Source: Phycisphaeraceae bacterium | GTDB lineage: Bacteria; Planctomycetota; Phycisphaerae; Phycisphaerales; UBA1924 | NCBI GenBank assembly: GCA_021604785.1 | Contig: BQJQ01000092.1 | Location: forward strand, 1 to 11,295 | Direction of reading: 5' to 3' | DNA length: 11,295 nt | Shown here: positions 1 through 11,295 of the stretch, piece by piece | Layout of the letters: each line of letters opens with the position of its first letter | How positions within the stretch are numbered: the first letter of the stretch is position 1 | The notes under the pieces: model-generated | Database searches by the model: none | The model's input: the letters and a program-made list of their open reading frames with translations, nothing else | Told to the model about the DNA's origin: nothing | Translations under genes and position numbers: made by a program

Positions 1-212
1 GTGATGGCGGCGACGGAGCCCGGGCGGACGGTGCCGCGGCCGTCAAAGAGCTCGACGAGCTCGCCGATTTTGAGGCGTTTGACGCGGACGGCGTGGTGGG
101 CCTCGTCGCCTTCGACAGCGATCGGGCCCGGCCCATCCTGCGAAGACGGGGCGTAGAGCCTGTGGTGCGCGGGGGTTGGGTCTGTGCGGGGTCCTCCCGC
201 GGTTCGGGGCAT
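1..212 (-). CDS. rsmE: 16S rRNA (uracil1498-N3)-methyltransferase RsmE, N-terminal fragment (5' part of gene; rest lies beyond window start)
   Basis: Minus-strand translation from ATG (complement of 210-212) gives MPRTAGGPRTDPTPAHHRLYAPSSQDGPGPIAVEGDEAHHAVRVKRLKIGELVELFDGRGTVRPGSVAAIT. This matches the characteristic RsmE N-terminus (R-[IL]-Y-x-P ... HH/HI-x-RVLRL-x-GD-x-[LV]-x-LFDG-x-G). Open to the window edge. The plus-strand ORF 93..482 on the opposite strand is R/G-rich garbage. Confidence 0.6.
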   Translation of the reverse strand, partial: MPRTAGGPRTDPTPAHHRLYAPSSQDGPGPIAVEGDEAHHAVRVKRLKIGELVELFDGRGTVRPGSVAAI

Positions 213-277
213 GGTCGACGGTACCGCGGATCGGGCTTGAGTTCGACCCGGGGCGGTCCGATCATCCGAGCGAGACC

Positions 278-1330
278 ATGCCGGACGGATCGGAGCAGAC
301 CGCGTCTCCCGCTGAACTCGAGGCTGAGCTTGCCAAGCTCACCTCCGAGTTGGAAGCCGAGTGCGCTCAGATCGAGGCGTCCGAGGACGCGGCCCCGGCA
401 GGGGCTTCGGTCTCGGCGGGGGTCGGTGAGGACGACGAGCCCGCGGGCGATGACGATCACGCCGACCTCGACGCGGCCCTGACGGGGTTGCTCAGCGAAT
501 CCGACAGCCCGTCGGACGGGTGGTCGGGGGACGACGACGCCGCTCCGCCACCGATCGATCTGGGGGCGGGCGGGCACGCGCCCAAAGCAACAGCCGAAGA
601 CGACGAAGGCACCGACCCGGACGCCAAGGCGGGCGCGGGGTTCGATCTGCCCGACGCTGAGCAGCAACTCGCGGAACTCGATCAGAGCCTCGCGGACCTG
701 ACAGCGGAGCTGCTGGGCGGCGGCGAGGAGGGTTCCTCGACGGCTGATGCGCCGGCTGCGAGCGTTCCAGCGGCTGAGCCGGTCGCCGCGACGAAGACTG
801 AACCCGCAGCAGCGCCCGCCGACGAACCCGCGGGTGCGGAAGGCACGCCCACCAGTACGCCCGACGATGACGCCGCGGAATCTGCTCCCGCGGGCGTGAC
901 CGCTTCGGAGAATGAGCCGACGGACTCACCGGTTGCGAGCGCGGGCGAGCCCGGGCGGATCGTGAGCGCGTGGCGCCGGGCGGAGCCGACGGTGCGGACC
1001 GCGGGCGAAGTCACGATGAAGGTCTACCGCGTCGTCGCGCCGCACGCGCGGACCGCGGGCATCGTCTCGGCACGGGCCGCGGCGCCGGTGGGTGCGCGGG
1101 CGTTGCTGCTCGCGTCCAAGCCGATCGAGACGCGGCCCAAGGCGGTGCGCGATTCGATCGGATGGCTGGCGCTGGGGACGCTGTTCGTCTCGGTGGTGAC
1201 GTGGTTCTTCGTGCTGGTCCGGTCGCCGGCGAGCCCGGTGGCGGTTGAGCAGCCCGCGGGGCTGCAGGACGCGGACGCGGCTCAGGGGGCAGCTGTGTCG
1301 GTCTCGGCCGCGGCATCATCGGACGGCTGA
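278..1330 (+). CDS. Hypothetical acidic, low-complexity (D/E/A/P-rich) protein with a short coiled-coil-like N-terminus and a single C-terminal transmembrane helix (tail-anchored).
   Basis: ORF-track ORF 176..1330 begins at TTG. The first ATG at 278 gives MPDGSEQTASPAELEAELAKLTSELEAECAQIE... Third codon positions are strongly G/C, as expected for coding sequence in this genome. The hydrophobic stretch IGWLALGTLFVSVVTWFFVLV lies about 50 aa from the C-terminus. Opposite-strand ORFs are R/P-rich antisense artefacts. No recognisable catalytic motifs. Confidence 0.5.
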   Translation: MPDGSEQTASPAELEAELAKLTSELEAECAQIEASEDAAPAGASVSAGVGEDDEPAGDDDHADLDAALTGLLSESDSPSDGWSGDDDAAPPPIDLGAGGHAPKATAEDDEGTDPDAKAGAGFDLPDAEQQLAELDQSLADLTAELLGGGEEGSSTADAPAASVPAAEPVAATKTEPAAAPADEPAGAEGTPTSTPDDDAAESAPAGVTASENEPTDSPVASAGEPGRIVSAWRRAEPTVRTAGEVTMKVYRVVAPHARTAGIVSARAAAPVGARALLLASKPIETRPKAVRDSIGWLALGTLFVSVVTWFFVLVRSPASPVAVEQPAGLQDADAAQGAAVSVSAAASSDG

Positions 1331-2414
1331 AGCGTCGCCCGCCAGTCGCGGTCCAGCGCGTCAAACCCCATGCCCAGCGCCTGCTTCGAAGCCTCATCGA
1401 CACCCAGCGCACCCAACGCCACGAGCCACGCGAACCCGCGCTCGCGGCCGAACCGTTCGAGCACGTACGCGACCATGCTGTGCCCCATCGGGTACGCCAG
1501 TCGCTGTTGCATGAACGTGTCTTCGTCGAAGACCGCAAGAAACTCGAACTCGACGAGCTTGTCGCCGGCGGCAAGCTTCGCGAGCCGCTCGTTCACGCCC
1601 GCGAGTTTGTCATGGATGCTCGACGCCGCGGCTTCGGCGACGCCCTCGTGCGCCCACCACGGCGTCGCGTCCCGCTCGATGCCCATCGCGAAGTAGAGCG
1701 CGTGCCCCAGCTCGTGCGCGATCACACGCTCGATCGATTCGGGCGTGCGCCCGGTGCGCCAGAGCATCTTGATCGACTCGCCCGGCTCGTACCACCCGCC
1801 CAGCGGGGGGTCGTAGGTGGGCGAGATCGACAGCTGCAGGTGCGCGACGTTGTCGTACAGCTTCACCGGGGGGAGCTCGGCGCCGGAGACTTCGAAGAAC
1901 GCCTCGACCCGCGGCGCCACCCGGGCGTACGCCGACCGGACCAGCTCGGCCTCGACCTCGAGCTCGGGCGTCGCGAGCACGCGGATTCGCGGATCGTCGG
2001 AGCGAGCGTGCTCCCAATCCTCCCCGGCGTACCGCCACACGCCGGCGGCGTCCCGCGTGAACCGGGCGTCGAACGTGGCCGATCGAGCTTCCGCTTCGGC
2101 GCTGGGCTGCCAACGCACGCGCACCGGCGCGACGAGCGTGTCACCCTCGGCCCGCGTGCGTCCCGCCCGCTCCAGCTCGAAGGCGGGCACCGCGTCCCCG
2201 GTGACGGCGTTGGCCAGATACCGCTGCTCGTGGGCGAAATACGGATCCGACAGGTCCACGTCCGCGAGGAACGAGCCGCCGTCCGACGAGCGCACGGCCT
2301 CAGTCAGCCGGCCCGCGAGGGCGTCGATTGCGTCGTCCTCGGGCGTTGCCACCGCGCACCCGAAGCCGGGCAGCAGCGCCGCCATCACGCCCACGCAAAG
2401 GAATGCCGCCCGCA

Positions 2415-2415
<1 letters not shown>
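1282..2415 (-). CDS. Secreted zinc metallopeptidase-like protein (gluzincin-type HEXXH...E, peptidase MA-like) with N-terminal signal peptide
   Basis: Internal ATG (complement of 2413-2415) gives MRAAFLCVGVMAALLPGFGCAVA|TPEDD, a hydrophobic signal peptide ending in AVA (an AXA-type signal-peptidase site). The zinc-binding motif VIAHELGHALYF is followed about 20 aa later by WWAHEGVAE, a candidate third ligand Glu. The upstream 141 codons of ORF 1282..2838 are antisense of asnS and were excluded. The stop at 1282-1284 overlaps the convergent gene by 49 nt. Confidence 0.65.
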
Positions 2416-3830
<1,415 letters not shown>

Positions 3831-3873
3831 GAATCGGGCTCCCGCAAGAGGTAGGAGCCGATCGTAGGTGTTC

Positions 3874-3897
3874 CGCGGCCCATCGGGAGAGCCGCGG
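3874..3897 (-). other. GC-rich stem-loop (7-bp stem CCGCGGC/GCCGCGG, 10-nt loop) in the 77-bp spacer between the DUF1559 gene stop and the asnS start. Possible attenuator or RNA processing/stability element; no T-tract follows, so not a canonical intrinsic terminator.
   Basis: Plus strand 3874-3880 ccgcggc and 3891-3897 gccgcgg are exact reverse complements. Confidence 0.25.
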
Positions 3898-3907
3898 CGG
3901 GCGGGCG

Positions 3908-4816
3908 TCAGCGCTGGAAAAAGTCCAGGTAGCCCCACTCGCGGCTGTTCTTGACCCGCAGCGCCCCGGCGAGCCCGTCCCACTGCATCTGCGCCCAGAT
4001 GATGTCGCCGTTGTAGGGGACGCGGACCATCACGTCGTGCGCGACGAAGTCCTTGGTGGGCTCCTCAACCGTCGCGCTCTCGCCCACAGCCGCGTCCCAC
4101 GGGCGGACGACGCCGTCGAGGTAGAGGATGTTGCCCTTGTCGCTGTGGCGGTCGGTGATCTGGTCCTGGGCGGCCCACTCGCCGTCCTGATACTCGTCGT
4201 CGTTGGGGCCTTTGCGCACGCCGTTGTAGAACCAGGTGCTCTCCTCGACGAAGATCGGGATCGAGTCGAAGAGGGTCAGGTACTCGTCGAAGTCCTCGTG
4301 CAGGACCTGCCGCAGCGGCGCGCCCTCGTACTTGCCCGCGGCCCGGTCGACGTACGCGAGCCGGGCCTGGTTGTAGAGTTGCACGCCCTGCACGCCGCGG
4401 ACCATCGTGTAGTCGAAATCGACCTGCGCGTCCTTGTACGTGAAGACGAGGCTCGCGTCGACATCGCCGGCGCCCTGGCGTTTGGCTTTGGGGCACCCGA
4501 GGACCTCGTCGGCGTTGCTGAGGTATTCAAAGACGGGCCCGGGTTCGTACTTCGGGCCGTCCGCAGGGACGGGGTTGATCGGGATCTTGGCCCATTTGCC
4601 GCCCTCGGGCCAGATGCGGTCCTTGTTGTCGCTGGCGTAGAGGTGCGTCGCCTGCCCGAGGCTGCGCATGTTGACGGCGCACGCGGTGCCCACAGCGGTC
4701 TCGCGCGCCTTGCCCAACGCGGGCAGGAGGATGCCGATCAAAAGCGCGATGATCGCGATGACCACCAGCAACTCGATCAGCGTGAATGCACGACAACGAT
4801 CATTGTTCTGAAACAC
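3908..4816 (-). CDS. Type IV pilin-like / pseudopilin-like protein of the DUF1559 (H-X9-DG) family with prepilin-type N-terminal methylation/TM domain
   Basis: GTG start (complement of 4814-4816) is preceded by GGGAGGG about 10 nt upstream. The N-terminus [10 protein letters not shown]|[29 protein letters not shown] is a classic class III (prepilin) signal but has Ala, not Gly, at -1. The C-terminal H-X9-DG motif is [12 protein letters not shown]. It is a paralogue of the next gene. Confidence 0.8.
4698..4787. repeat. About 90-bp dispersed repeat, copy 1 (roughly 90% identical to 5714..5803). It corresponds to the conserved prepilin N-terminal helix coding region of the two DUF1559 paralogues.
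   Basis: Alignment by eye gives about 9 mismatches over 90 nt, with no indels. It includes an identical 26-mer cgcgatgatcgcgatgaccaccagca. Confidence 0.7.
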
Positions 4817-4861
4817 TTCCGGGCCCTCCCTCTAGGCGCCAAGAAACGGGGTTTATCAAAT

Positions 4862-4874
4862 TGTAACTGTTACA
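4862..4874. promoter_or_regulatory. Perfect 6-1-6 palindrome TGTAAC-T-GTTACA in an AT-enriched spacer, 46-58 bp upstream of the GTG of DUF1559 gene 1. Candidate dimeric transcription-factor operator.
   Basis: Read directly: 4862-4867 tgtaac, 4868 t, 4869-4874 gttaca. The surrounding 4850-4875 is the most AT-rich stretch in the window. A TTGATA hexamer (minus-strand reading of 4853-4858) lies adjacent. Confidence 0.35.
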
Positions 4875-4947
4875 TCGGCCCGCGCCAAGCCCGCACCTTG
4901 AGAAGTTGGGGAATGCTCCTCTCGCCCGTTTGTACGGTATTTGATTG

Positions 4948-5823
4948 CTAGTAGAGTAGGTACTGGTTGATCCAGCCGTAGGACTGATCCACCTGGGAAG
5001 AGGTCCACCACGACACGGAACGGTACTTGGGCTTGCCGTTGAGCCGGATCTTGAAGTAGATCTCGTTGGCGATGAAGTCGGTGTTCTCCTGGGCTTGCTC
5101 AGACTCGCTCACGTAGGAGGGGAAGAACTCGACGCCGCCGTCGAGGGTGACGATCTGCCCGCCGCCGTCGTGGCGGGAGGAGATCTGGTCGAGGTTGCCC
5201 CAGAGCCCGTCGGTGTACACCGAGTTGTACCACTCGGCACTCTCCTCGACGAAGACCGGGGGCGAGCGGAAGCGGGTGAGTTTGTCCTCGCCGTAGGGCT
5301 CGCCGAACCCGGTGGGCAGGTGCGCGTCGGTGTACTTCCCGCCGACGCGGTCCACGTACCAGACCGTGCCGGGCAGGTCGGTGCGGGCGCCCTGCATGCC
5401 GGCGAAGAAGGTGTAGTCGAAGTCCACCTCGCCACTGGTGAACGCGTCGAGCACCGAGCGGTCCTCGCCCGTGACGGATCGGCGTTTGTTCTTCGGGCAG
5501 GCGAGGACCTCGTGGGTGTTGTCCACGTAGGCGTAGATCGCGCCGGGCTCCCAACGATCTTCGGACTCGTCCCACACGCGGGCCCAGGTCTCGGCGATAG
5601 CCCCGCCATCGTCCAACGCCACGGCCCAGATCTTGGTGTCGTGGTCGTTCGCGTACTGATGCGTTGCGACGCCGAGCTGGCGCGCGTTGGAGGCACACGC
5701 CACCCGCAACCCCGTCTCGCGCGCGTGCCCCAACGCGGGCAGCAGGATGCCGATGAGCAGCGCGATGATCGCGATGACCACCAGCAGCTCGATCAGCGTA
5801 AATCCGCGCTGTTTCCCGGTCAT
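4948..5823 (-). CDS. Type IV pilin-like / pseudopilin-like protein of the DUF1559 (H-X9-DG) family, paralogue of 3908..4816
   Basis: The preferred start is ATG (complement of 5821-5823), giving MTGKQRG|[29 protein letters not shown] with a canonical Gly at -1 and a 7-aa leader. An alternative in-frame ATG at 5841 would give the 13-aa leader [13 protein letters not shown]. The ORF-track GTG start at 6000 adds a 59-aa R/P-rich extension that I regard as non-coding. The H-X9-DG motif is [12 protein letters not shown]. Conserved blocks shared with the paralogue include EVL[GA]CPK[AN]KR, VDFDYT and P[IV]FVEES. Confidence 0.8.
5714..5803. repeat. About 90-bp dispersed repeat, copy 2 (pairs with 4698..4787)
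   Basis: See copy 1. Confidence 0.7.
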
Positions 5824-5977
5824 CCGCGCCCCGCTGTTCATGACTTCACCGATGCCACCGCCCGGCGATCGGGCGGACGCGTGAGCGTACCAGACCGCCG
5901 CCGCGGGCCCAAGAAACGCGTGAAACCCGCGGTCCGGCGTAGAATCACCCGGCCTGCCCCTGCGCGGACAGGTCCGA

Positions 5978-5986
5978 AAAGGGGAG
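5978..5986 (+). promoter_or_regulatory. Shine-Dalgarno-like AAAGGGGAG, 5 nt upstream of the GTG start of the flotillin gene. A TAGAAT (-10-like) hexamer lies at 5939-5944.
   Basis: 5981-5986 ggggag, followed by aacc and GTG at 5991. tagaat at 5939-5944 is 47 nt upstream of the start. Confidence 0.4.
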
Positions 5987-5990
5987 AACC

Positions 5991-7601
5991 GTGTCCACAC
6001 TCGTCCTGCTGCTCGGCGTCGTTCTGGCGATCGCCATCCTCAGCCTGCTGTCCAAGACCAAGTCCCTCCCGCTCGTGCTCGCGGTGCTCACGGGTGCGCT
6101 GCTTGTGCTGATCATGGCGGTCGGGCTCGCGTCGATCCGGTTCGTCGGGTCGAGCCAGGTCGGGATCATCAAGAAGAACGCGTTCGGGCCGAGCCTCGCG
6201 GGCGGGCGGATCATCGCGACCGGGGGCGAGATGGGCATCCAGGCCGAGGTGCTGCCCCCCGGGTGGCACTTCGGGTACCTCCCGCTGATCTACCAGGTGG
6301 ACAACCGCTCGCTGATCGACATCAAGGAAGGGCAAGTCGGGCTGGTCGAGGCGCGCGACGGGCAGCCGCTCGATGCGGGCCAGCTCTTTGCGCCCGAGGT
6401 CCCCGGCACCGAGTTCAAGAAGATGCTCGACGACGCGGGCTACTTCCTCACCGCCGGCGGCGGGCGCAAGGGCCCGCAGTCCAACGTCCTCACGCCCGGC
6501 AAGTACCGCATCAACACCGAGCTGTTCAACGTCACCATGACCGACGCGACCGAGGTCACCCCCGCGGCGGTCGCCGTCCTCAAGAGCAACTTCGGCAACC
6601 CCCCCACGCTCGACGTCGCGCCGGCCCAGGGCGGCGAACCGGTCAGGCTTGCCATGCAGGGCGAGAAGGGCGTGCTGGCCGAGCCCCTCCCGCCGGGGAA
6701 GTACCCCGTGAACACCAAGGCGTTCAGCGTCTCGACCGTCTCGACCAAAGAGACCATCGTGCTCTTCACCGCCGCCCAGGCCCGGCGCGACGGCGGGGTG
6801 AACGCCGAGCAGCGCGAGATCACCGTCCGCACTTCCGACGGGTTCACATTCCCGGTTGACGTCCGCATCGAGTACCGCATCCAGCCCGTGGATGCGCCGA
6901 TCATCGTCGCCAAGCTCGGCTCCGATGGAGACCCGCTGCTCGCCAAGCTCAACTCGACGGTTCGCGCCATCTTCCGCAACAACGCCGAAGGCGTGAAGGC
7001 GCTGGACTACGTCAACCAGCGGTCCGAACAGGAACGCCAGTCGCTGGCGATGCTCCGCGAGGAGATGTCGCAGGTCGGCGTGACGGTGCTCGCGGTGCGC
7101 ATCGGCGACGTGGGCGATGAAGCCACACTGGGCGAACTGCTCAAGACGCAGCGGGACCGCGAGATCGCGGTGCAGGAGCAGATCACGCTCAAGGAACAGC
7201 AGAAAGCCGCGGAGGAGCAGAAGGAACTGAGCCGCACCGAGCAGGAGGGCGAGGAGGAACGCCGGCTCGCAACCGCGTCGTACCAGGTGCAGATCGCCGA
7301 GCAGGAGCAGCAGCAGCGGATCATCAAGGCGAACGCCGAGGCCGAGGCGATCCTGATCGAGGCCGAGGCACAGGCGAACGCGTACCAGCTCATCGCGACG
7401 CAGATCGGCAAAGGCAACGCGGCGCTGATCGAGGTGCTGCGGATCGTGGGCGAGAACAAGATCCAGATCACGCCCAAGGTCATGGTGACCTCCGACGGCT
7501 CGGGCTCGCGGGCCGCGGGCGCCCAGGGCAACCCCGAGACCATCGCCCTGATCGGGACGATGCTCGACCGGATGGTGGAGGACGAGCCGGACGCTCCCTG
7601 A
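5991..7601 (+). CDS. SPFH/band-7 domain membrane protein of the flotillin family (YqiK/FloT-like)
   Basis: GTG start with a strong SD. The N-terminal hydrophobic hairpin is [20 protein letters not shown]...[20 protein letters not shown]. The SPFH core follows ([12 protein letters not shown]..., [23 protein letters not shown]). A long E/Q/A-rich coiled coil with EA repeats ([26 protein letters not shown]) is the flotillin C-terminal signature. 536 aa. Confidence 0.85.
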
Positions 7602-7644
7602 CCACCCGGGGCGGGCGGCTGCCCGAGCGCGCGTATTCTCCGCC

Positions 7645-8793
7645 ATGCGTTCTGACGCCGACACGTCGCGGATCTCCCCGCTCGGGCTGACCTGCGATCG
7701 GTACGTCGAGGCGTGCCGCGACGCGGGCATCGGCGCGGCACGCGCGACCGGGTGCTACACCAGGTACTACCGCGAGGGCGTAGGCGAAGGCCCCGCTGCG
7801 GGCGCCGAGGTCGCGCCGATCGTCAAGCGCCTCACCGAGCCCGGCGACGAGGGCGTGACGACCAAGTTCTGCCAGCGTCTCAACGCGCCCGACGCCGGCC
7901 GGTTCGCCGAGCAGGGCGTGCCGCACCTGGACATCGAGTCGGTCATCATCCCGATGGTCGGGCGGACAAGCCGCCGGTCACACACGCTGTGCGTGTCGAG
8001 CCAGGTCGGGTGCGCGATGGGGTGCGAGTTCTGCGAGACGGCGCAGATGGGGCTGGTCCGCTCGCTGACGCCCGCGGAGATCGTCGGGCAATGGTGGGCC
8101 GCGACGCATCTCGAGGGCGCCGAGATCGACAACATCGTTTTCATGGGCATGGGCGAGCCGCTCGACAACCTCGACGCGGTGCTCGACGCGATCGCCTGCC
8201 TGACCGACCACCGCGGCGCGGCGGTCCCCATGAGCAACATCACGATCTCGACCGTCGGACGCGTGGACGGGCTGCGCAAGCTCATCGACGTCGTCCAGCA
8301 GCCCGGGTGGAAACGCCTCGGGCTCGCGCTGAGTGTGAACGCGCCCAACGACGAGGTCCGCAACGCGATCATGCCGCTCAACAAGCGATGGGGCATGGCC
8401 GAGCTCCGCGACACGATGGTCGAGCTCTCCGCCGCCCGCAGCAACCGCAAGCTGCTCTTCGAGTACGTCCTGATCCCGGGCGTCAACGACGCGCCCGAGC
8501 ACGCGGGCCAGCTCGCCGAGTGGCTCAGCCCGTTCCTGCGCGCCGAGCGCGGCAAGCACATCGGCCTGCTCAACGTCATCCCGTACAACCCGCGCCGGAA
8601 CTCGCCCTGGCCCGCCCCCGACGAGGACGACGTGACCCGATTCGTCGACGACCTCCGCGACCTGGGGGTGTACGCGAAGCGCCGGCGGACCAAGGGTCGG
8701 ACGAGCATGGCCGCCTGCGGGCAGCTGGGGACCGAGGACATCCGCAAGCGCCAGTACGTCCCCGTGACGACGACCGGGGCGACGCGTGCCTGA
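7645..8793 (+). CDS. rlmN: Radical SAM 23S rRNA/tRNA adenine C2-methyltransferase RlmN (RlmN/Cfr family)
   Basis: ATG at 7645. The protein has the Cys-x3-Cys-x2-Cys radical-SAM cluster and the family-specific region TLCVSSQVGCAMGCEFCETAQMGLVRSLTPAEIVGQ. Other matching motifs are GMGEPLDN, ITISTVG, LALSVNAPNDEVRNAIMPLNKRW and LFEYVLIPGVNDAPEHAGQLAEWL. The C-terminal TKGRTSMAACGQL holds the conserved mechanistic Cys. 382 aa matches RlmN size. Confidence 0.9.
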   Translation: MRSDADTSRISPLGLTCDRYVEACRDAGIGAARATGCYTRYYREGVGEGPAAGAEVAPIVKRLTEPGDEGVTTKFCQRLNAPDAGRFAEQGVPHLDIESVIIPMVGRTSRRSHTLCVSSQVGCAMGCEFCETAQMGLVRSLTPAEIVGQWWAATHLEGAEIDNIVFMGMGEPLDNLDAVLDAIACLTDHRGAAVPMSNITISTVGRVDGLRKLIDVVQQPGWKRLGLALSVNAPNDEVRNAIMPLNKRWGMAELRDTMVELSAARSNRKLLFEYVLIPGVNDAPEHAGQLAEWLSPFLRAERGKHIGLLNVIPYNPRRNSPWPAPDEDDVTRFVDDLRDLGVYAKRRRTKGRTSMAACGQLGTEDIRKRQYVPVTTTGATRA

Positions 8794-11295
8794 GGGGCGT
8801 ATCCGGCGTGCGCTCAAGTCCTCGCCGATCGCCTGGATCAAGCGCCACCCGCGCGCCGCGCTGGCGATCTACGGCGTCCTGCTGATCGCCAACTGGATCA
8901 TCATCGGCGAGGTGAACTTCGGGCGCAAGATCTGGGGCGAGGGGTACATGGCCGACACCGCGCACGCGCGCGAGCTCGTGCTCGACGCGCCGGGCCTGCC
9001 CGTGCGCGAGCTACCGCTGCGCTACTGGGTCGCCTCCCGCGGCGATCTCACCGACCCGGACCACCCGCCCGCGCTCCTCCTGCACGGCTCGCCGGGTGCC
9101 GCGGTCGGGTTTATGGCGTCCGCGGAAAACCCCGGGCTCGTCGGCGAGCTCGAACGGCTCGACCGGGCGGTCATCTGGGTGGACCTCCCCGGGTTCGCGT
9201 CGGAGATCGACCCGACGCGCGAGTTCACGAGCTACTCCGCCGACGCGTACGCGGACGTCATGCTCGCGGTGCTTGACGAATTGGGCGTGGAGCGCGCGCA
9301 CGTCGTCGGGTGGTCCAACGGCGGGGCCGTCGGGCTGCGCATGATCGAGGCGGACCCCGATCGCATCGCAACCCTCACCCTGCTCGCGTCGGTTGGCGTG
9401 CAGGAGACCGAGGGGTCGGGAAGCTACCTCTTCGAGCACGCGAAGTACGCCTTTGGGCAGGTCACGCTCGGGGCGGCGGGGTATCTGGTGCCGCCGGTCG
9501 GGTGGGTGGCGCCGACGGCCGAGACGCGTGCGTTCCTTGCGAACTTCCAGCAGACCGATCAGCGCGCCATGCGCCCGATCATGGAGACGCTCGACACGCC
9601 CACCCTCATCCTGCACGGGCGCCATGATTTCCTGACCCCCGCGTGGGGGGCCGAGCTGCACCACGAGATCATGCCGACGAGCCGGCTGGTGATGCTCGGC
9701 GGGTCGCACTTCATCCCGATGCTGCAGGCAAAGGACGCCGCGGCGGTCATGGAGGGGTTCTTCACCCGCCACGATCGTGCCGGCGTCGAGCCGATCACGA
9801 CCTACGAGGACCGCGCGCCCAATGTCGACCGCGCCGGCGTCGCGCGCGCGATCGCGTGGGTCGGCGGGCACATTCGGTGGACGCCGTGGTGGGTGCTCGT
9901 GCCGTTGATCGCGCTGCTGGCGCGCTGGCGCCCGGAGCTGGCGACGGTGCTCGTCGCGATGTACGTCGGGCGGGTGGACCTGGATATCGGGGTGGCGCTG
10001 CTCGGGCTGTTCGCGGGGCGGCTGGCGCGCCGGCGCACGCCCTTCGACCGTCGGCGGCTGCCCGTCGGCTGGATCGGCACGGCGGCGTGGACCGCGCTGT
10101 CGGTGTTCATCGTGTTCATGCTCGAGCAGGACACGTTCCCGTGGCGTCTCGGGCCGGACGATGCCGCGTTGCGGTTCGGCGCGATCGGGTTCGTCGCGTA
10201 TCTCGTCGTATTGACGACGCTGCTGCACGTGCTGCGGAGCCTCCTCCGCCGGCCGGGGCGGCAGCGCCTCCTCGCGCAGTGGACGCACCTCCGCTCGCAC
10301 GAACACTGGCCGAGCTGGGTGATGTACGTGCCGGTGATTCCGATCTGGGTCGGGCACGCGTTCAAACCCGGCGGCGTGCTCGCGTTCACGGCGGCGAACC
10401 CCGGCATCCCCGACGGCGGCGGGATCACGGGGGAATCCAAATCGCACATTCTGCGCGCCCTGGGCGGCGACCCGCGCGTGCTTGCGCATGAGCTGATCGA
10501 GGCGGGCCCGACCACCGGCGAGCGCGCCGCCGCGGCGCTCCGCGCGATCGAGTCCCGCCCGGACCTCGGCGGGTACCCCGTCATCCTCAAGCCCGACACG
10601 GGCGAACGGGGCTCGGACGTCAGGCTCGCGCGCACGCCGGGCGACGTCGCCCCGTTCTTCGAGCAGGTGCGCGAGGACGCGGTGGTCCAGCGATTCGACC
10701 CCGGGCCGGCGGAGTTCGGCGTGCTCTGGATCCGCCACCCCGACGCGATCGGACGCGATCCGGGCGCGGGCGAGCCGGCGGGCTCGATCTTCGCGATCAC
10801 CGAGAAGCGGTTCCCGGAGGTCGTCGGCGACGGCGCACGCACGCTCGGCGAGCTGATTCTCGCCCACCCGCGAGGGCGGGCGCAGGCGGAAATCCTGTTT
10901 GCCAGGTTCGGCGCGCGTACGCGGGAGACCATCCCCGAGGGCGAGCGGGTTCGGTTCACCAACGCGGGCAACCACATGCAGGGCAGCTCGTTCCACGACG
11001 GCAGCCAGCTCATCACGCCCATACTCGAGCGCGCGATCGACGCGGTCGCGGGCGGGTTTGCCGACGAACGGGGGCGCGGGCTGGATTTCGGTAGGTTCGA
11101 CGTGCGGTGCCCTTCGGGCGAGCACCTGGCGCGGGGCGAGGGGCTGACGATCATCGAGCTCAACGGCGTGCTGGGCGAGGCGACCATCCACTACGACCCG
11201 GACCGGTCCGCGCTGTTCGCGTGGGGCGTGCTGCAGGCGCAATGGAAGCGGCTGTACGAGGTGGGTGAGGCGCGGATCGCGGCGGGGGCGAAGCC
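8786..11295 (+). CDS. Large multidomain membrane protein, 3'-truncated by the window end (at least 836 codons). It has an N-terminal TM anchor, an alpha/beta-hydrolase fold (Ser nucleophile), a polytopic membrane domain of about 4-5 TM, and a C-terminal ATP-grasp amidoligase domain. It is not present in the supplied ORF track.
   Basis: Frame 2 was translated manually from the GTG at 8786, which overlaps the rlmN stop by 8 nt. The frame runs to 11295 with no stop. The TM segment is AALAIYGVLLIANWIIIG. The hydrolase region has the HG oxyanion motif LLLHGSPG (9074-9097), the nucleophile elbow GWSNG (9308-9322), the Asp candidate LILHGRHDF and the His candidate GGSHFIP. Hydrophobic helices span about 9850-10370 (WWVLVPLIALLARW, IGVALLGLFAG, AWTALSVFIVFML, FGAIGFVAYLVVLTTLLHVL, WVMYVPVIPIWVG). 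The ATP-grasp motifs are YPVILKPDTGERGSDV (10574-10621), FAITEKRFPEVVGDGARTLGELI (VVGDG... at 10820-10858), NAGNHMQGSSFHDGSQLITP, and GLTIIELNGVLGEAT (11150-11179 region). Strong GC3 bias. The opposite-strand ORFs 9011..11242 and 9802..11187 are R-rich antisense artefacts. Confidence 0.75.
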   Translation, partial: MPEGRIRRALKSSPIAWIKRHPRAALAIYGVLLIANWIIIGEVNFGRKIWGEGYMADTAHARELVLDAPGLPVRELPLRYWVASRGDLTDPDHPPALLLHGSPGAAVGFMASAENPGLVGELERLDRAVIWVDLPGFASEIDPTREFTSYSADAYADVMLAVLDELGVERAHVVGWSNGGAVGLRMIEADPDRIATLTLLASVGVQETEGSGSYLFEHAKYAFGQVTLGAAGYLVPPVGWVAPTAETRAFLANFQQTDQRAMRPIMETLDTPTLILHGRHDFLTPAWGAELHHEIMPTSRLVMLGGSHFIPMLQAKDAAAVMEGFFTRHDRAGVEPITTYEDRAPNVDRAGVARAIAWVGGHIRWTPWWVLVPLIALLARWRPELATVLVAMYVGRVDLDIGVALLGLFAGRLARRRTPFDRRRLPVGWIGTAAWTALSVFIVFMLEQDTFPWRLGPDDAALRFGAIGFVAYLVVLTTLLHVLRSLLRRPGRQRLLAQWTHLRSHEHWPSWVMYVPVIPIWVGHAFKPGGVLAFTAANPGIPDGGGITGESKSHILRALGGDPRVLAHELIEAGPTTGERAAAALRAIESRPDLGGYPVILKPDTGERGSDVRLARTPGDVAPFFEQVREDAVVQRFDPGPAEFGVLWIRHPDAIGRDPGAGEPAGSIFAITEKRFPEVVGDGARTLGELILAHPRGRAQAEILFARFGARTRETIPEGERVRFTNAGNHMQGSSFHDGSQLITPILERAIDAVAGGFADERGRGLDFGRFDVRCPSGEHLARGEGLTIIELNGVLGEATIHYDPDRSALFAWGVLQAQWKRLYEVGEARIAAGAK

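Follow-up and report, generated by a model that had tools for sequence, protein, structure and literature searches.

A fusion of an alpha/beta-hydrolase, a DedA-type membrane module and a predicted ATP-grasp ligase in Phycisphaerales

The window analysed here is a stretch of 11,295 nucleotides (positions 1 to 11,295, forward strand) of contig BQJQ01000092.1, from the assembly GCA_021604785.1 of a Phycisphaeraceae bacterium. Its largest gene lies at 8786..11295 on the plus strand. As motif, profile and fold comparisons show, the predicted product is an inner-membrane protein in which a basic N-terminus and a signal-anchor helix are followed by an alpha/beta-hydrolase, a DedA-derived membrane module and an ATP-grasp ligase. 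We refer to it as the fusion protein. The gene is a single and real open reading frame (ORF), conserved and uncharacterised in Phycisphaerales.

Reading frame and catalytic domains

From the GTG at 8786 the frame is open through the window end, giving 836 codons, compared with 536 and 522 codons for the next-largest genes of the window. It is missing from the list of ORFs because it has no stop in the window, as was already pointed out in an earlier note on this DNA, made from the letters alone. Full-length homologues have 810-870 amino acids (aa); compared with these, the last 22 or so codons are missing from the window copy. Between the preceding in-frame stop (8765) and the first hydrophobic helix, the GTG at 8786 is the sole start codon. 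This start overlaps the TGA stop (8791-8793) of the upstream rlmN gene, and the 8 nt involved (8786..8793, plus strand) read GTGCCTGA in the sequence.

DNA of about 70% GC can give long open frames by chance, and the composition of the codon positions was therefore tested. The GC content at codon positions 1, 2 and 3 of the fusion ORF is 0.72, 0.50 and 0.93 overall, and at the third position (GC3) it stays at 0.90-0.95 in each 300-nt slice, close to the 0.95 of the upstream rlmN. There is no local drop and no sign of a frameshift. An antisense ORF at 9011..11242 (743 codons) has the mirror-image pattern of GC at the codon positions and is spurious. A relative of the fusion protein is found in 211 GTDB species (one genome scanned per species), almost all of them Phycisphaerales and several of them represented by closed chromosomes, so the architecture is not an assembly artefact. 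We therefore reject the idea that a frameshift or misassembly joined separate hydrolase, membrane-protein and ligase genes, the chance of which is practically negligible: nothing was found in its favour except that the ORF runs off the window end, while GC3 is uniform, the same continuous architecture is shared by these genomes, and the AlphaFold model of the full-length protein is confident (pLDDT 88.6, pTM 0.82). A frameshift or stop that splits the gene, which the earlier note had allowed for on resequencing, is thus not seen in the present sequence, and its description as one ORF with a transmembrane anchor, a GxSxG hydrolase, a membrane segment and an ATP-grasp agrees with GC3, homologues and profile searches.

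The basic N-terminus leads into a signal-anchor helix at aa 22-58 (8849..8959, plus strand), with a hydrophobic core at aa 24-44, a Kyte-Doolittle maximum of 1.98 and an unbroken helix over residues 22-58 in the model. The alpha/beta-hydrolase domain, predicted to be periplasmic, covers aa 62-330 (8969..9775, plus strand) and matches the Pfam family Abhydrolase_1 (PF00561) with 68.3 bits and an E-value of 1e-18, the gathering threshold being 25.8 bits. An HGSPG motif at aa 100-104 would supply the oxyanion hole (HG, 100-101). The nucleophile Ser177 (9314-9316, plus strand) is found in the elbow GWSNGG (aa 175-180), the acid Asp281 (9626-9628, plus strand) in an HGRHD motif and His308 (9707-9709, plus strand) in an SHF motif. 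H100-G101, S177, D281 and H308 are invariant across 26 diverse full-length homologues with 39-65% identity (alignment A2), with Ser, Asp and His in the canonical order, and the hydrolase reading of the earlier note (HG oxyanion hole, GWSNG elbow, downstream Asp and His) holds at the level of the motifs.

A cap motif peculiar to the family, TEGSGSYxFEHxKY (aa 208-221), is also invariant in this alignment. On the hydrolase domain, all NCBIfam equivalog models stay below their cut-offs, and the closest solved structures are mixed: AidH (4g5x, E 8e-12), lactonases, meta-cleavage-product (C-C) hydrolases, esterases and proline iminopeptidase. From its motifs the domain looks like an active serine hydrolase, without a recognisable subfamily. 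With generic alpha/beta serine hydrolases (AidH, meta-cleavage-product hydrolases, proline iminopeptidase, BioH, PcaD) it shares PF00561, the HG and GxSxG motifs and the Ser-Asp-His order. Unlike them, it is tethered to the membrane, predicted to be periplasmic, and has its own invariant cap motif (EGSGSYxFEHxKY).

The C-terminal module at aa 497-836 (10274..11293, plus strand) is a predicted cytoplasmic carboxylate-amine ligase of the ATP-grasp fold. It includes conserved juxtamembrane HE(W/Y)WP helices at aa 505-524. Pfam and NCBIfam scans of the C-terminal third and of the membrane third gave nothing or noise-level ATP-grasp matches, with no Pfam match at E<=10, and the RimK family PF08443 in particular is not matched by the window C-terminus even at E<=10; among 40 relatives, six match PF08443 at E<=0.1, the best at 3.5e-5. 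A single-sequence search of the PDB with the C-terminal domain gave only E-values of 0.17-1.4. The earlier expectation that Pfam and HMMER would find the ATP-grasp was therefore wrong, as these scans missed the ligase, which was recognised only with a family profile and a structure model.

A profile made from 23 diverse C-terminal segments (alignment A1) and searched against the PDB has the G domain of cyanophycin synthetase (CphA) as its best match (E 1e-7), followed by a RimK-domain protein (CphA2), biotin carboxylases, GshAB and Ddl. The best 60 of the 95 matches are all named ATP-grasp-type enzymes. The alignment with CphA takes in the KP strand for ATP binding, the insertion containing GDG..T, the N..G loop and the Mg site (E-x-N). 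The AlphaFold model of aa 497-836 is confident (pLDDT 91, pTM 0.90), and Foldseek finds 310 PDB matches to it at E<=0.001. The best 50 of these 310 are all ATP-grasp enzymes, with CphA1 first (CphA1/CphA2 at E 1e-9), followed by GshAB, Ddl and RimK. The assignment to an ATP-grasp of cyanophycin-synthetase or RimK flavour, made before any search, is thus borne out by both profile and fold.

The motifs quoted from the letters alone are all at their places: in addition to the two hydrolase motifs, KPDTGERGSDV is found at aa 602-612, VVGDGARTLGELI at aa 679-691 and IELNGVLGE at aa 790-798. Key residues are K552, K602 (KPDxGERG), Q635, E643, the GDGxRTL stretch at 681-687, N729-H730, R770/D772/R774 and E791/N793 (ELNG). 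K552, K602, Q635, E643, N729-H730, R770/D772/R774 and E791/N793 are invariant; K602, D772, E791 and N793 are so in 23-26 diverse homologues and align with the KP and E-V-N motifs of CphA. ATP-grasp enzymes, in whose fold three alpha/beta subdomains enclose ATP, are ligases that join a carboxylate to an amine or thiol by way of an acyl-phosphate. The fold and the invariance of the ATP- and Mg-binding residues are what is expected of such an enzyme, and from these we predict carboxylate-amine ligase activity.

The closest profile and fold match is cyanophycin synthetase, which as a carboxylate-amine ligase joins an amino acid to a carboxylate. The G domain of CphA1/CphA2 and the window ligase have in common the ATP strand with KP-x-G-x-x-G, the insertion with GDG..T, the substrate loop (N..G) and the E-x-N site for Mg. 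However, the two are only about 19-20% identical, and the window ligase is part of a membrane-embedded protein. The fusion protein ends about 45 residues past the ATP-grasp core, with no Mur-ligase-like M domain and no primer-binding N domain. For this reason, and as the match to the cyanophycin synthetase model TIGR02068 has 14.4 bits, far below the cut-off of 850, we reject the identification as a cyanophycin synthetase. The likeness to RimK-related ligases is that these are also ATP-grasp peptide ligases. RimK-related alpha-L-glutamate ligases are reportedly encoded beside 7TM inactive transglutaminases and retropepsin-like proteases, a description said to go back to Iyer and colleagues in 2009. 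Such neighbourhoods, with which the earlier note compared the gene, are a precedent for linking a ligase of this type to a polytopic membrane protein and a hydrolase. The window protein differs from them in that its membrane part is DedA-derived, its hydrolase is a serine alpha/beta-hydrolase and not an aspartic protease, and everything is found in one chain.

Relatives and the origin of the membrane module

A word-indexed search found 240 relatives of the fusion protein, and the best 120 of these are nearly all full-length. The named ones are called 'alpha/beta fold hydrolase' and come from Phycisphaerales or from metagenome-assembled genomes (MAGs) of Planctomycetota. The gene is therefore not unannotated, contrary to what had been claimed, as its homologues do have a name. 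An exhaustive profile search with the ligase (E<=1e-30) gave a clade of 1,424 cluster representatives at 50% identity. This clade has several architectures: proteins of about 830 aa such as that of the window, of about 900 aa and of about 1,100 aa, hydrolase-less forms of 540-590 aa (e.g., P0275) and stand-alone ATP-grasp proteins of 350-400 aa (e.g., P0169). One of the stand-alone forms is labelled 'carboxylate--amine ligase' by NCBI, and one hydrolase-less relative is named 'DedA with SNARE-associated domain' by JGI. Below, the type of about 830 aa is called the short class and the type of about 900 aa, which has a longer VTT module, the long class.

Further variants are found among the relatives. 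In P0010 (1294 aa; locus L004, 6001-9885, on a 590-kb contig) the unit of transmembrane helix, hydrolase and membrane module appears to be duplicated in tandem and is followed by a single ATP-grasp. P0163 and P0180 (about 1,100 aa) are extended at the N-terminus by about 300 aa that form an additional polytopic segment ahead of the hydrolase; this segment has no Pfam match. A copy of the Phycisphaerales type with 43% identity and a LysA-like gene upstream is present on RHKP01000018.1 (L022), labelled 'Cyanobacteria bacterium CYA'; this contig is probably mis-binned. The MAG NORP244 has two copies on separate contigs (L047, L052), each behind rlmN, which indicates a strain mixture or a recent duplication.

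The membrane module of the window protein covers aa 352-486 (9839..10243, plus strand). In the AlphaFold model it consists of helices a (368-381), b1 (383-395), b2 (401-414), c (426-447) and d (457-486). Helices b1 and b2 form a helix-break-helix at aa 383-414 that is retained in the window class. The break, R-V-D-L-D, contains Asp400 (9983-9985, plus strand), which is invariant in alignment A2. Asp400 may correspond to D51 of YghB, as a hand alignment with YqjA suggests.

The origin of the module becomes evident from the long class. Among 40 mostly long-class relatives, eight match the Pfam VTT/DedA family PF09335, the best with an E-value of 8e-16. P0165 matches profile positions 4-119 of 123 with 41.3 bits and an E-value of 2.6e-10, the gathering threshold being 33.9 bits. 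It also matches the NCBIfam models of UptA (undecaprenyl-phosphate transporter) and DedA nearly full length, below their cut-offs. The match of P0124 (900 aa) to the same Pfam domain is sub-threshold yet full-length. When the short-class module (87 sequences) is aligned with the long-class module (25 sequences) using hhalign, the probability is 99.5% and the E-value 2e-22, and both sides of a single internal gap of about 65 columns are aligned. The gap corresponds to about 65-70 extra residues that the long class has between helices b and c of the window protein. These residues contain 'GD..W.LGR.LG', an amphipathic stretch and 'F-x-P-x-x-R....A-x-G', which are DedA hallmarks.

Together, these profile alignments show that the membrane module of the window protein, as far as sequence comparison can tell, derives from a DedA/VTT lipid-transporter domain. 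What the window class has lost are about 65 residues, among them the amphipathic part at the centre and the second re-entrant helix, whose arginines are proposed to bind phosphate. The roughly 170-aa multi-helix membrane segment of the earlier note is thus about right in size (140-170 aa), but it is not anonymous; it is a DedA/VTT-derived domain with an internal deletion. Neighbour joining with the ligase domain places the window protein in a clade of 75 leaves with 59 short-class and 0 long-class members, and the largest long-dominated clade has 28 long-class members among 38. As the window clade is short-class and contains no long-class members, the deletion is a derived, lineage-specific state. 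The tree does not show clean monophyly, since the class 'noHyd', defined by a regular expression, mixes true hydrolase-less forms with motif variants.

The core of DedA proteins consists of two re-entrant helices and three transmembrane helices (Todor, Herrera and Gross, bioRxiv 10.1101/2023.01.04.522824). According to the same study, the first hairpin carries essential acidic residues (E39 and D51 in YghB), and the second hairpin carries the essential R130 and R136 (YghB), which are proposed to bind the phosphate of undecaprenyl phosphate (UndP). DedA proteins are regarded there as flippases of UndP or phospholipids, and the COG0586 subfamily is proposed to flip UndP (bioRxiv 10.1101/2023.01.04.522824). 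Compared with the DedA/VTT superfamily (UptA, YqjA/YghB, PetA, TMEM41B/VMP1), the window module appears to keep the region of the first hairpin with an invariant acidic residue, together with the following transmembrane helices. It lacks re-entrant helix 2 with the equivalents of R130 and R136, and it has no Pfam match of its own. The DedA fusions in the survey are only to PAP2, rhodanese and pyridine-nucleotide oxidoreductase domains, and known fusions such as that to PAP2 act on the transported lipid (bioRxiv 10.1101/2023.01.04.522824). Fusions to an alpha/beta-hydrolase or an ATP-grasp are absent from that list. A full-text literature search for DedA together with ATP-grasp gave nothing relevant, and the sequence search found no solved DedA structure.

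Gene neighbourhood of the two classes

The gene directly upstream of the fusion gene, at 7645..8793 on the plus strand, encodes a protein of 382 aa that is assigned to the RlmN/Cfr family of radical SAM RNA methyltransferases (TIGR00048, Pfam Radical_SAM). TIGR00048 is its best NCBIfam match (E 2e-65), with 221 bits against a cut-off of 290. The GCAMGCEFC (CxxxCxxC) motif and the C-terminal AACGQL cysteine are present, and judged by these features it is a divergent member of the family. The overlap with the fusion gene probably means that the two are co-transcribed. A scan of 7300-9300 showed no promoter-like or terminator-like site, and such a scan is uninformative for a planctomycete.

Among 82 informative species loci, the survey of neighbourhoods that the earlier note had proposed shows 58 with rlmN immediately upstream in the same orientation. 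In another six it is found 1.5-2.5 kb upstream, separated by another gene, and from 18 of the 82 it is absent. Gene calling based on GC3 missed the fusion gene itself in 18 of 84 loci, so the counts of other neighbours, such as the LysA-like gene, are lower bounds. The order RsmE, class II aminoacyl-tRNA synthetase, two DUF1559/N_methyl pilin-like genes, rlmN, fusion gene, PNPOx (opposite strand) and DnaB forms a syntenic housekeeping block. A LysA-like diaminopimelate (DAP) decarboxylase replaces rlmN in at least 8 loci; as a functional clue it was rejected, being judged a housekeeping coincidence.

The long class has a different neighbour. A TANGO2/NRDE-family gene (PF05742, above threshold) is found directly upstream of the VTT-intact copies in all 8 loci where the long class was found (L042, L065, L073, L077, L078, L082, L084 and L085). 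At the P0165 locus (L085) this gene lies at 6177-7004, overlaps the long-class gene by 4 bp and encodes an N-terminal Met-Cys and the NRDE motif; the locus is flanked by accA and an LpxA-like gene. No TANGO2-like gene is found within 6 kb of any short-class copy, and none is present in the window. TANGO2 is reported to be an acyl-CoA-binding protein and, judged from its crystal structure, a putative Cys-Ntn hydrolase (PMC11867700, PMC13044924). Gene order thus makes TANGO2/NRDE a candidate functional partner of the long class, one that would be the older of the two partners and would point to acyl or lipid chemistry.

Since TANGO2 takes the place of rlmN in the long class, and rlmN is absent from 18 of the 82 loci, the adjacency to rlmN looks like lineage synteny rather than functional partnership. 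The overlap between the rlmN stop and the GTG, which had been read as coupling with an odd partner, is therefore real, 8 nt long and often conserved, but a functional partnership is very unlikely: rlmN is missing in at least 18 of 82 species, and the sister class has TANGO2.

Other genes of the window were annotated as well. A gene for a 536-aa SPFH/Band-7 protein (5991-7601, plus strand) lies between the pilin-like genes and rlmN; it is the second upstream neighbour in 10 related loci and is missing, e.g., from L001 and L004. The genes at 3908-4816 and 4948-6000 (both minus strand) encode proteins with a prokaryotic N-terminal methylation motif, one of which is also a DUF1559 (SBP_bac_10) protein, a pilin-like family typical of planctomycetes. 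An ORF at 1282-2838 (minus strand) with a weak match to Peptidase_MA_2 shares about 420 nt with the class II aminoacyl-tRNA synthetase gene (2415-3983, minus strand). As the GC at its codon positions is ambiguous, the true start of this ORF probably lies further downstream. The region 1-2400 has no confident annotation.

Topology and possible function

The distribution of charge over the loops was averaged over 117 homologues. The mean net charge is +3.2 at the N-terminus, -0.4 after the first transmembrane helix, +1.4 at the turn between a and b1, -1.1 at the break between b1 and b2, +2.3 in the loop between b2 and c, -0.2 between c and d and +3.6 after helix d. By the positive-inside rule, this would place the N-terminus, the b2/c loop and the ligase in the cytoplasm and the hydrolase in the periplasm. 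A cytoplasmic ligase also fits with its need for ATP. In YqjA, the first hairpin is described as 'HPout', the second as a cytoplasmic hairpin, and a C-terminal fusion to green fluorescent protein is functional (bioRxiv 10.64898/2026.09.20.752871). The orientation of the window module fits this topology, which agrees with a cytoplasmic ligase. The tandem protein P0010 adds a constraint: its two hydrolases are on the same side only if the repeated unit crosses the membrane an even number of times. At 13-14 residues each, helices a, b1 and b2 are short, and the module could form either a hairpin and three spans or five spans (a, b1, b2, c, d); the sidedness is the same either way.

The combination of domains suggests an unknown envelope or lipid modification pathway. 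We tentatively favour a general scheme, to which we give a little less than an even chance (and a much smaller one to any particular substrate), in which the ligase joins a carboxylate to an amine on a membrane-embedded or lipid-linked molecule and the hydrolase processes the same class of molecule. At the cytoplasmic face, the ATP-grasp would activate a carboxylate as an acyl-phosphate and then join it to an amine, most likely that of an amino acid. One of the two partners would be lipid-linked or embedded in the membrane and would be held by the DedA-derived module; candidates are a polyprenyl-phosphate-linked wall precursor or the head group of a phospholipid or amino-lipid. On the outer face, the serine hydrolase would then hydrolyse or transacylate the same class of molecule. 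The reverse order, trimming outside and re-ligation inside, is equally possible. Synthesis and trimming at the membrane, as the earlier note suggested, would be a reasonable reading of these domains. As the arginine-bearing hairpin is lost, the module of the window lineage is probably a lipid-binding tether or a dimerisation scaffold rather than a complete flippase.

Several observations weigh against this scheme. The two catalytic domains may act on different molecules, and the existence of stand-alone (P0169) and hydrolase-less (P0275) ligases means that the ligase can work without the hydrolase. The window membrane module has no Pfam match at E<=10, PF09335 included. Outside Asp400 and a few Gly, Pro and Trp residues it is poorly conserved, as expected of a mere anchor. 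Since the re-entrant helix with the presumed phosphate-binding residues is gone, lipid handling may be lost in the window class. The predicted sidedness is based on charge bias and analogy, and a, b1 and b2 may be a hairpin or spans. Finally, the neighbours of the short class (aminoacyl-tRNA synthetase, rlmN, PNPOx, DnaB, LysA-like) are housekeeping genes that give no functional clue.

Alternatively, the module could be a degenerate tether that holds together two enzymes with unrelated substrates, for example a periplasmic esterase or peptidase and a cytoplasmic builder of peptides or polymers (cyanophycin-like, poly-amino-acid), or an enzyme for RimK-like tailing of protein C-termini. The closest ligase relatives, i.e., the CphA G domain, RimK and GshAB, do act on soluble peptides or polymers, and the loss of re-entrant helix 2, the weak conservation of the module and the forms without a hydrolase all fit. 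However, the three-part fusion is kept in more than 200 species at only 40% identity, which argues for a coupled function. In addition, Asp400 in the hairpin break is invariant, the ancestral form bears a bona fide VTT domain, and the protein stops right after the ATP-grasp, so that it has neither the M domain nor the primer-binding N domain of CphA. A simple anchor is therefore, in our view, unlikely, although a serious contender.

The other alternatives are more specific. MprF is paired with a periplasmic aminoacyl-phosphatidylglycerol hydrolase, and this system has a synthase inside, a lipid-translocating module and a periplasmic hydrolase of the alpha/beta type, all acting on one lipid modification. 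By analogy, and as a special case of the scheme that we favour, the ATP-grasp could load an amino acid on the head group of a phospholipid or amino-lipid; the module would expose the product on the outer leaflet, and the hydrolase would remove it for homeostasis. The layout of the fusion protein (cytoplasmic synthase, lipid-transporter-type module, periplasmic alpha/beta-hydrolase) is the same, and the long class adjoins TANGO2 (acyl-CoA binding) and accA/lpxA-like genes. Some DedA members such as PetA are reported to move phosphatidylethanolamine (PMC10193950). The likeness is one of analogy only, as there is no sequence relationship: the fusion protein has no Pfam or NCBIfam match to the MprF synthase or flippase, and MprF uses aminoacyl-tRNA and a GNAT-like synthase, not an ATP-grasp. 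Nor is an ATP-grasp enzyme acting on lipid head groups documented in the material examined, and we consider this version improbable.

The editing of peptidoglycan precursors appears to us quite improbable too. Here, the stem peptide of lipid II or another UndP-linked glycan would be extended by one residue by the ligase, with the polyprenyl phosphate bound to the module and the product trimmed in the periplasm by the hydrolase. The nearly full-length match of the intact P0165 module to UptA models fits with this, as do the proposed role of COG0586 DedA proteins as UndP flippases, the existence of DedA-PAP2 fusions, the presence of Ddl among the structural neighbours of the ligase and the LysA-like DAP decarboxylase upstream in at least 8 loci. 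However, the UptA matches are far below the cut-offs (25 bits vs 300), the arginine hairpin that is proposed to hold the phosphate of UndP is missing from the window class, the vicinity has no mur, fts or pbp genes, and LysA is housekeeping.

A functional link to RlmN and the ribosome, in which, for example, a RimK-like modification of a ribosomal protein is coordinated with rRNA methylation, is very unlikely: in spite of the 8-nt overlap, the 58 loci with rlmN directly upstream and RimK among the distant relatives of the ligase, rlmN is absent or separated by a gene in the remaining 18 and 6 loci, the block as a whole (RsmE, aminoacyl-tRNA synthetase, rlmN, PNPOx, DnaB) consists of housekeeping genes in conserved order, and TANGO2 is the coupled gene in the VTT-intact sister class. 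In addition, ribosomes are unlikely to be modified by a protein that is embedded in the membrane and has its hydrolase in the periplasm.

The three domains each come from known superfamilies, but in the literature searched we have not found their combination of hydrolase, DedA and ATP-grasp described. The same is true for the ligase clade, which is large, escapes Pfam and NCBIfam and goes under the annotation 'alpha/beta fold hydrolase', and for the natural series of DedA degeneration, which leads from an intact VTT domain to a VTT domain without the arginine hairpin. DedA proteins are nearly universal, and their substrates are debated (undecaprenyl phosphate, phosphatidylethanolamine or general scrambling), and fusions to enzymes are used as clues. 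The fusion family adds a DedA module joined to two catalytic domains that, by the predicted topology, are on opposite faces of the membrane, the ligase inside and the hydrolase outside.

If the ligase acts on a lipid-linked substrate, Phycisphaerales would have an envelope modification of a new type, which would also give a handle on the mechanism of DedA proteins. It can be speculated, although we hold this fuller version to be rather unlikely, that the fusion protein is part of an unknown envelope pathway in which the ATP-grasp attaches an amino acid or peptide to a lipid-linked molecule, the DedA-type module presents or translocates the product and the periplasmic hydrolase edits it. Such a pathway would be the ATP-grasp counterpart of MprF and its hydrolase. 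The fusion protein would then contain the first DedA domain wired to enzymes that make and unmake its cargo, and the specificity of the module would become directly testable.

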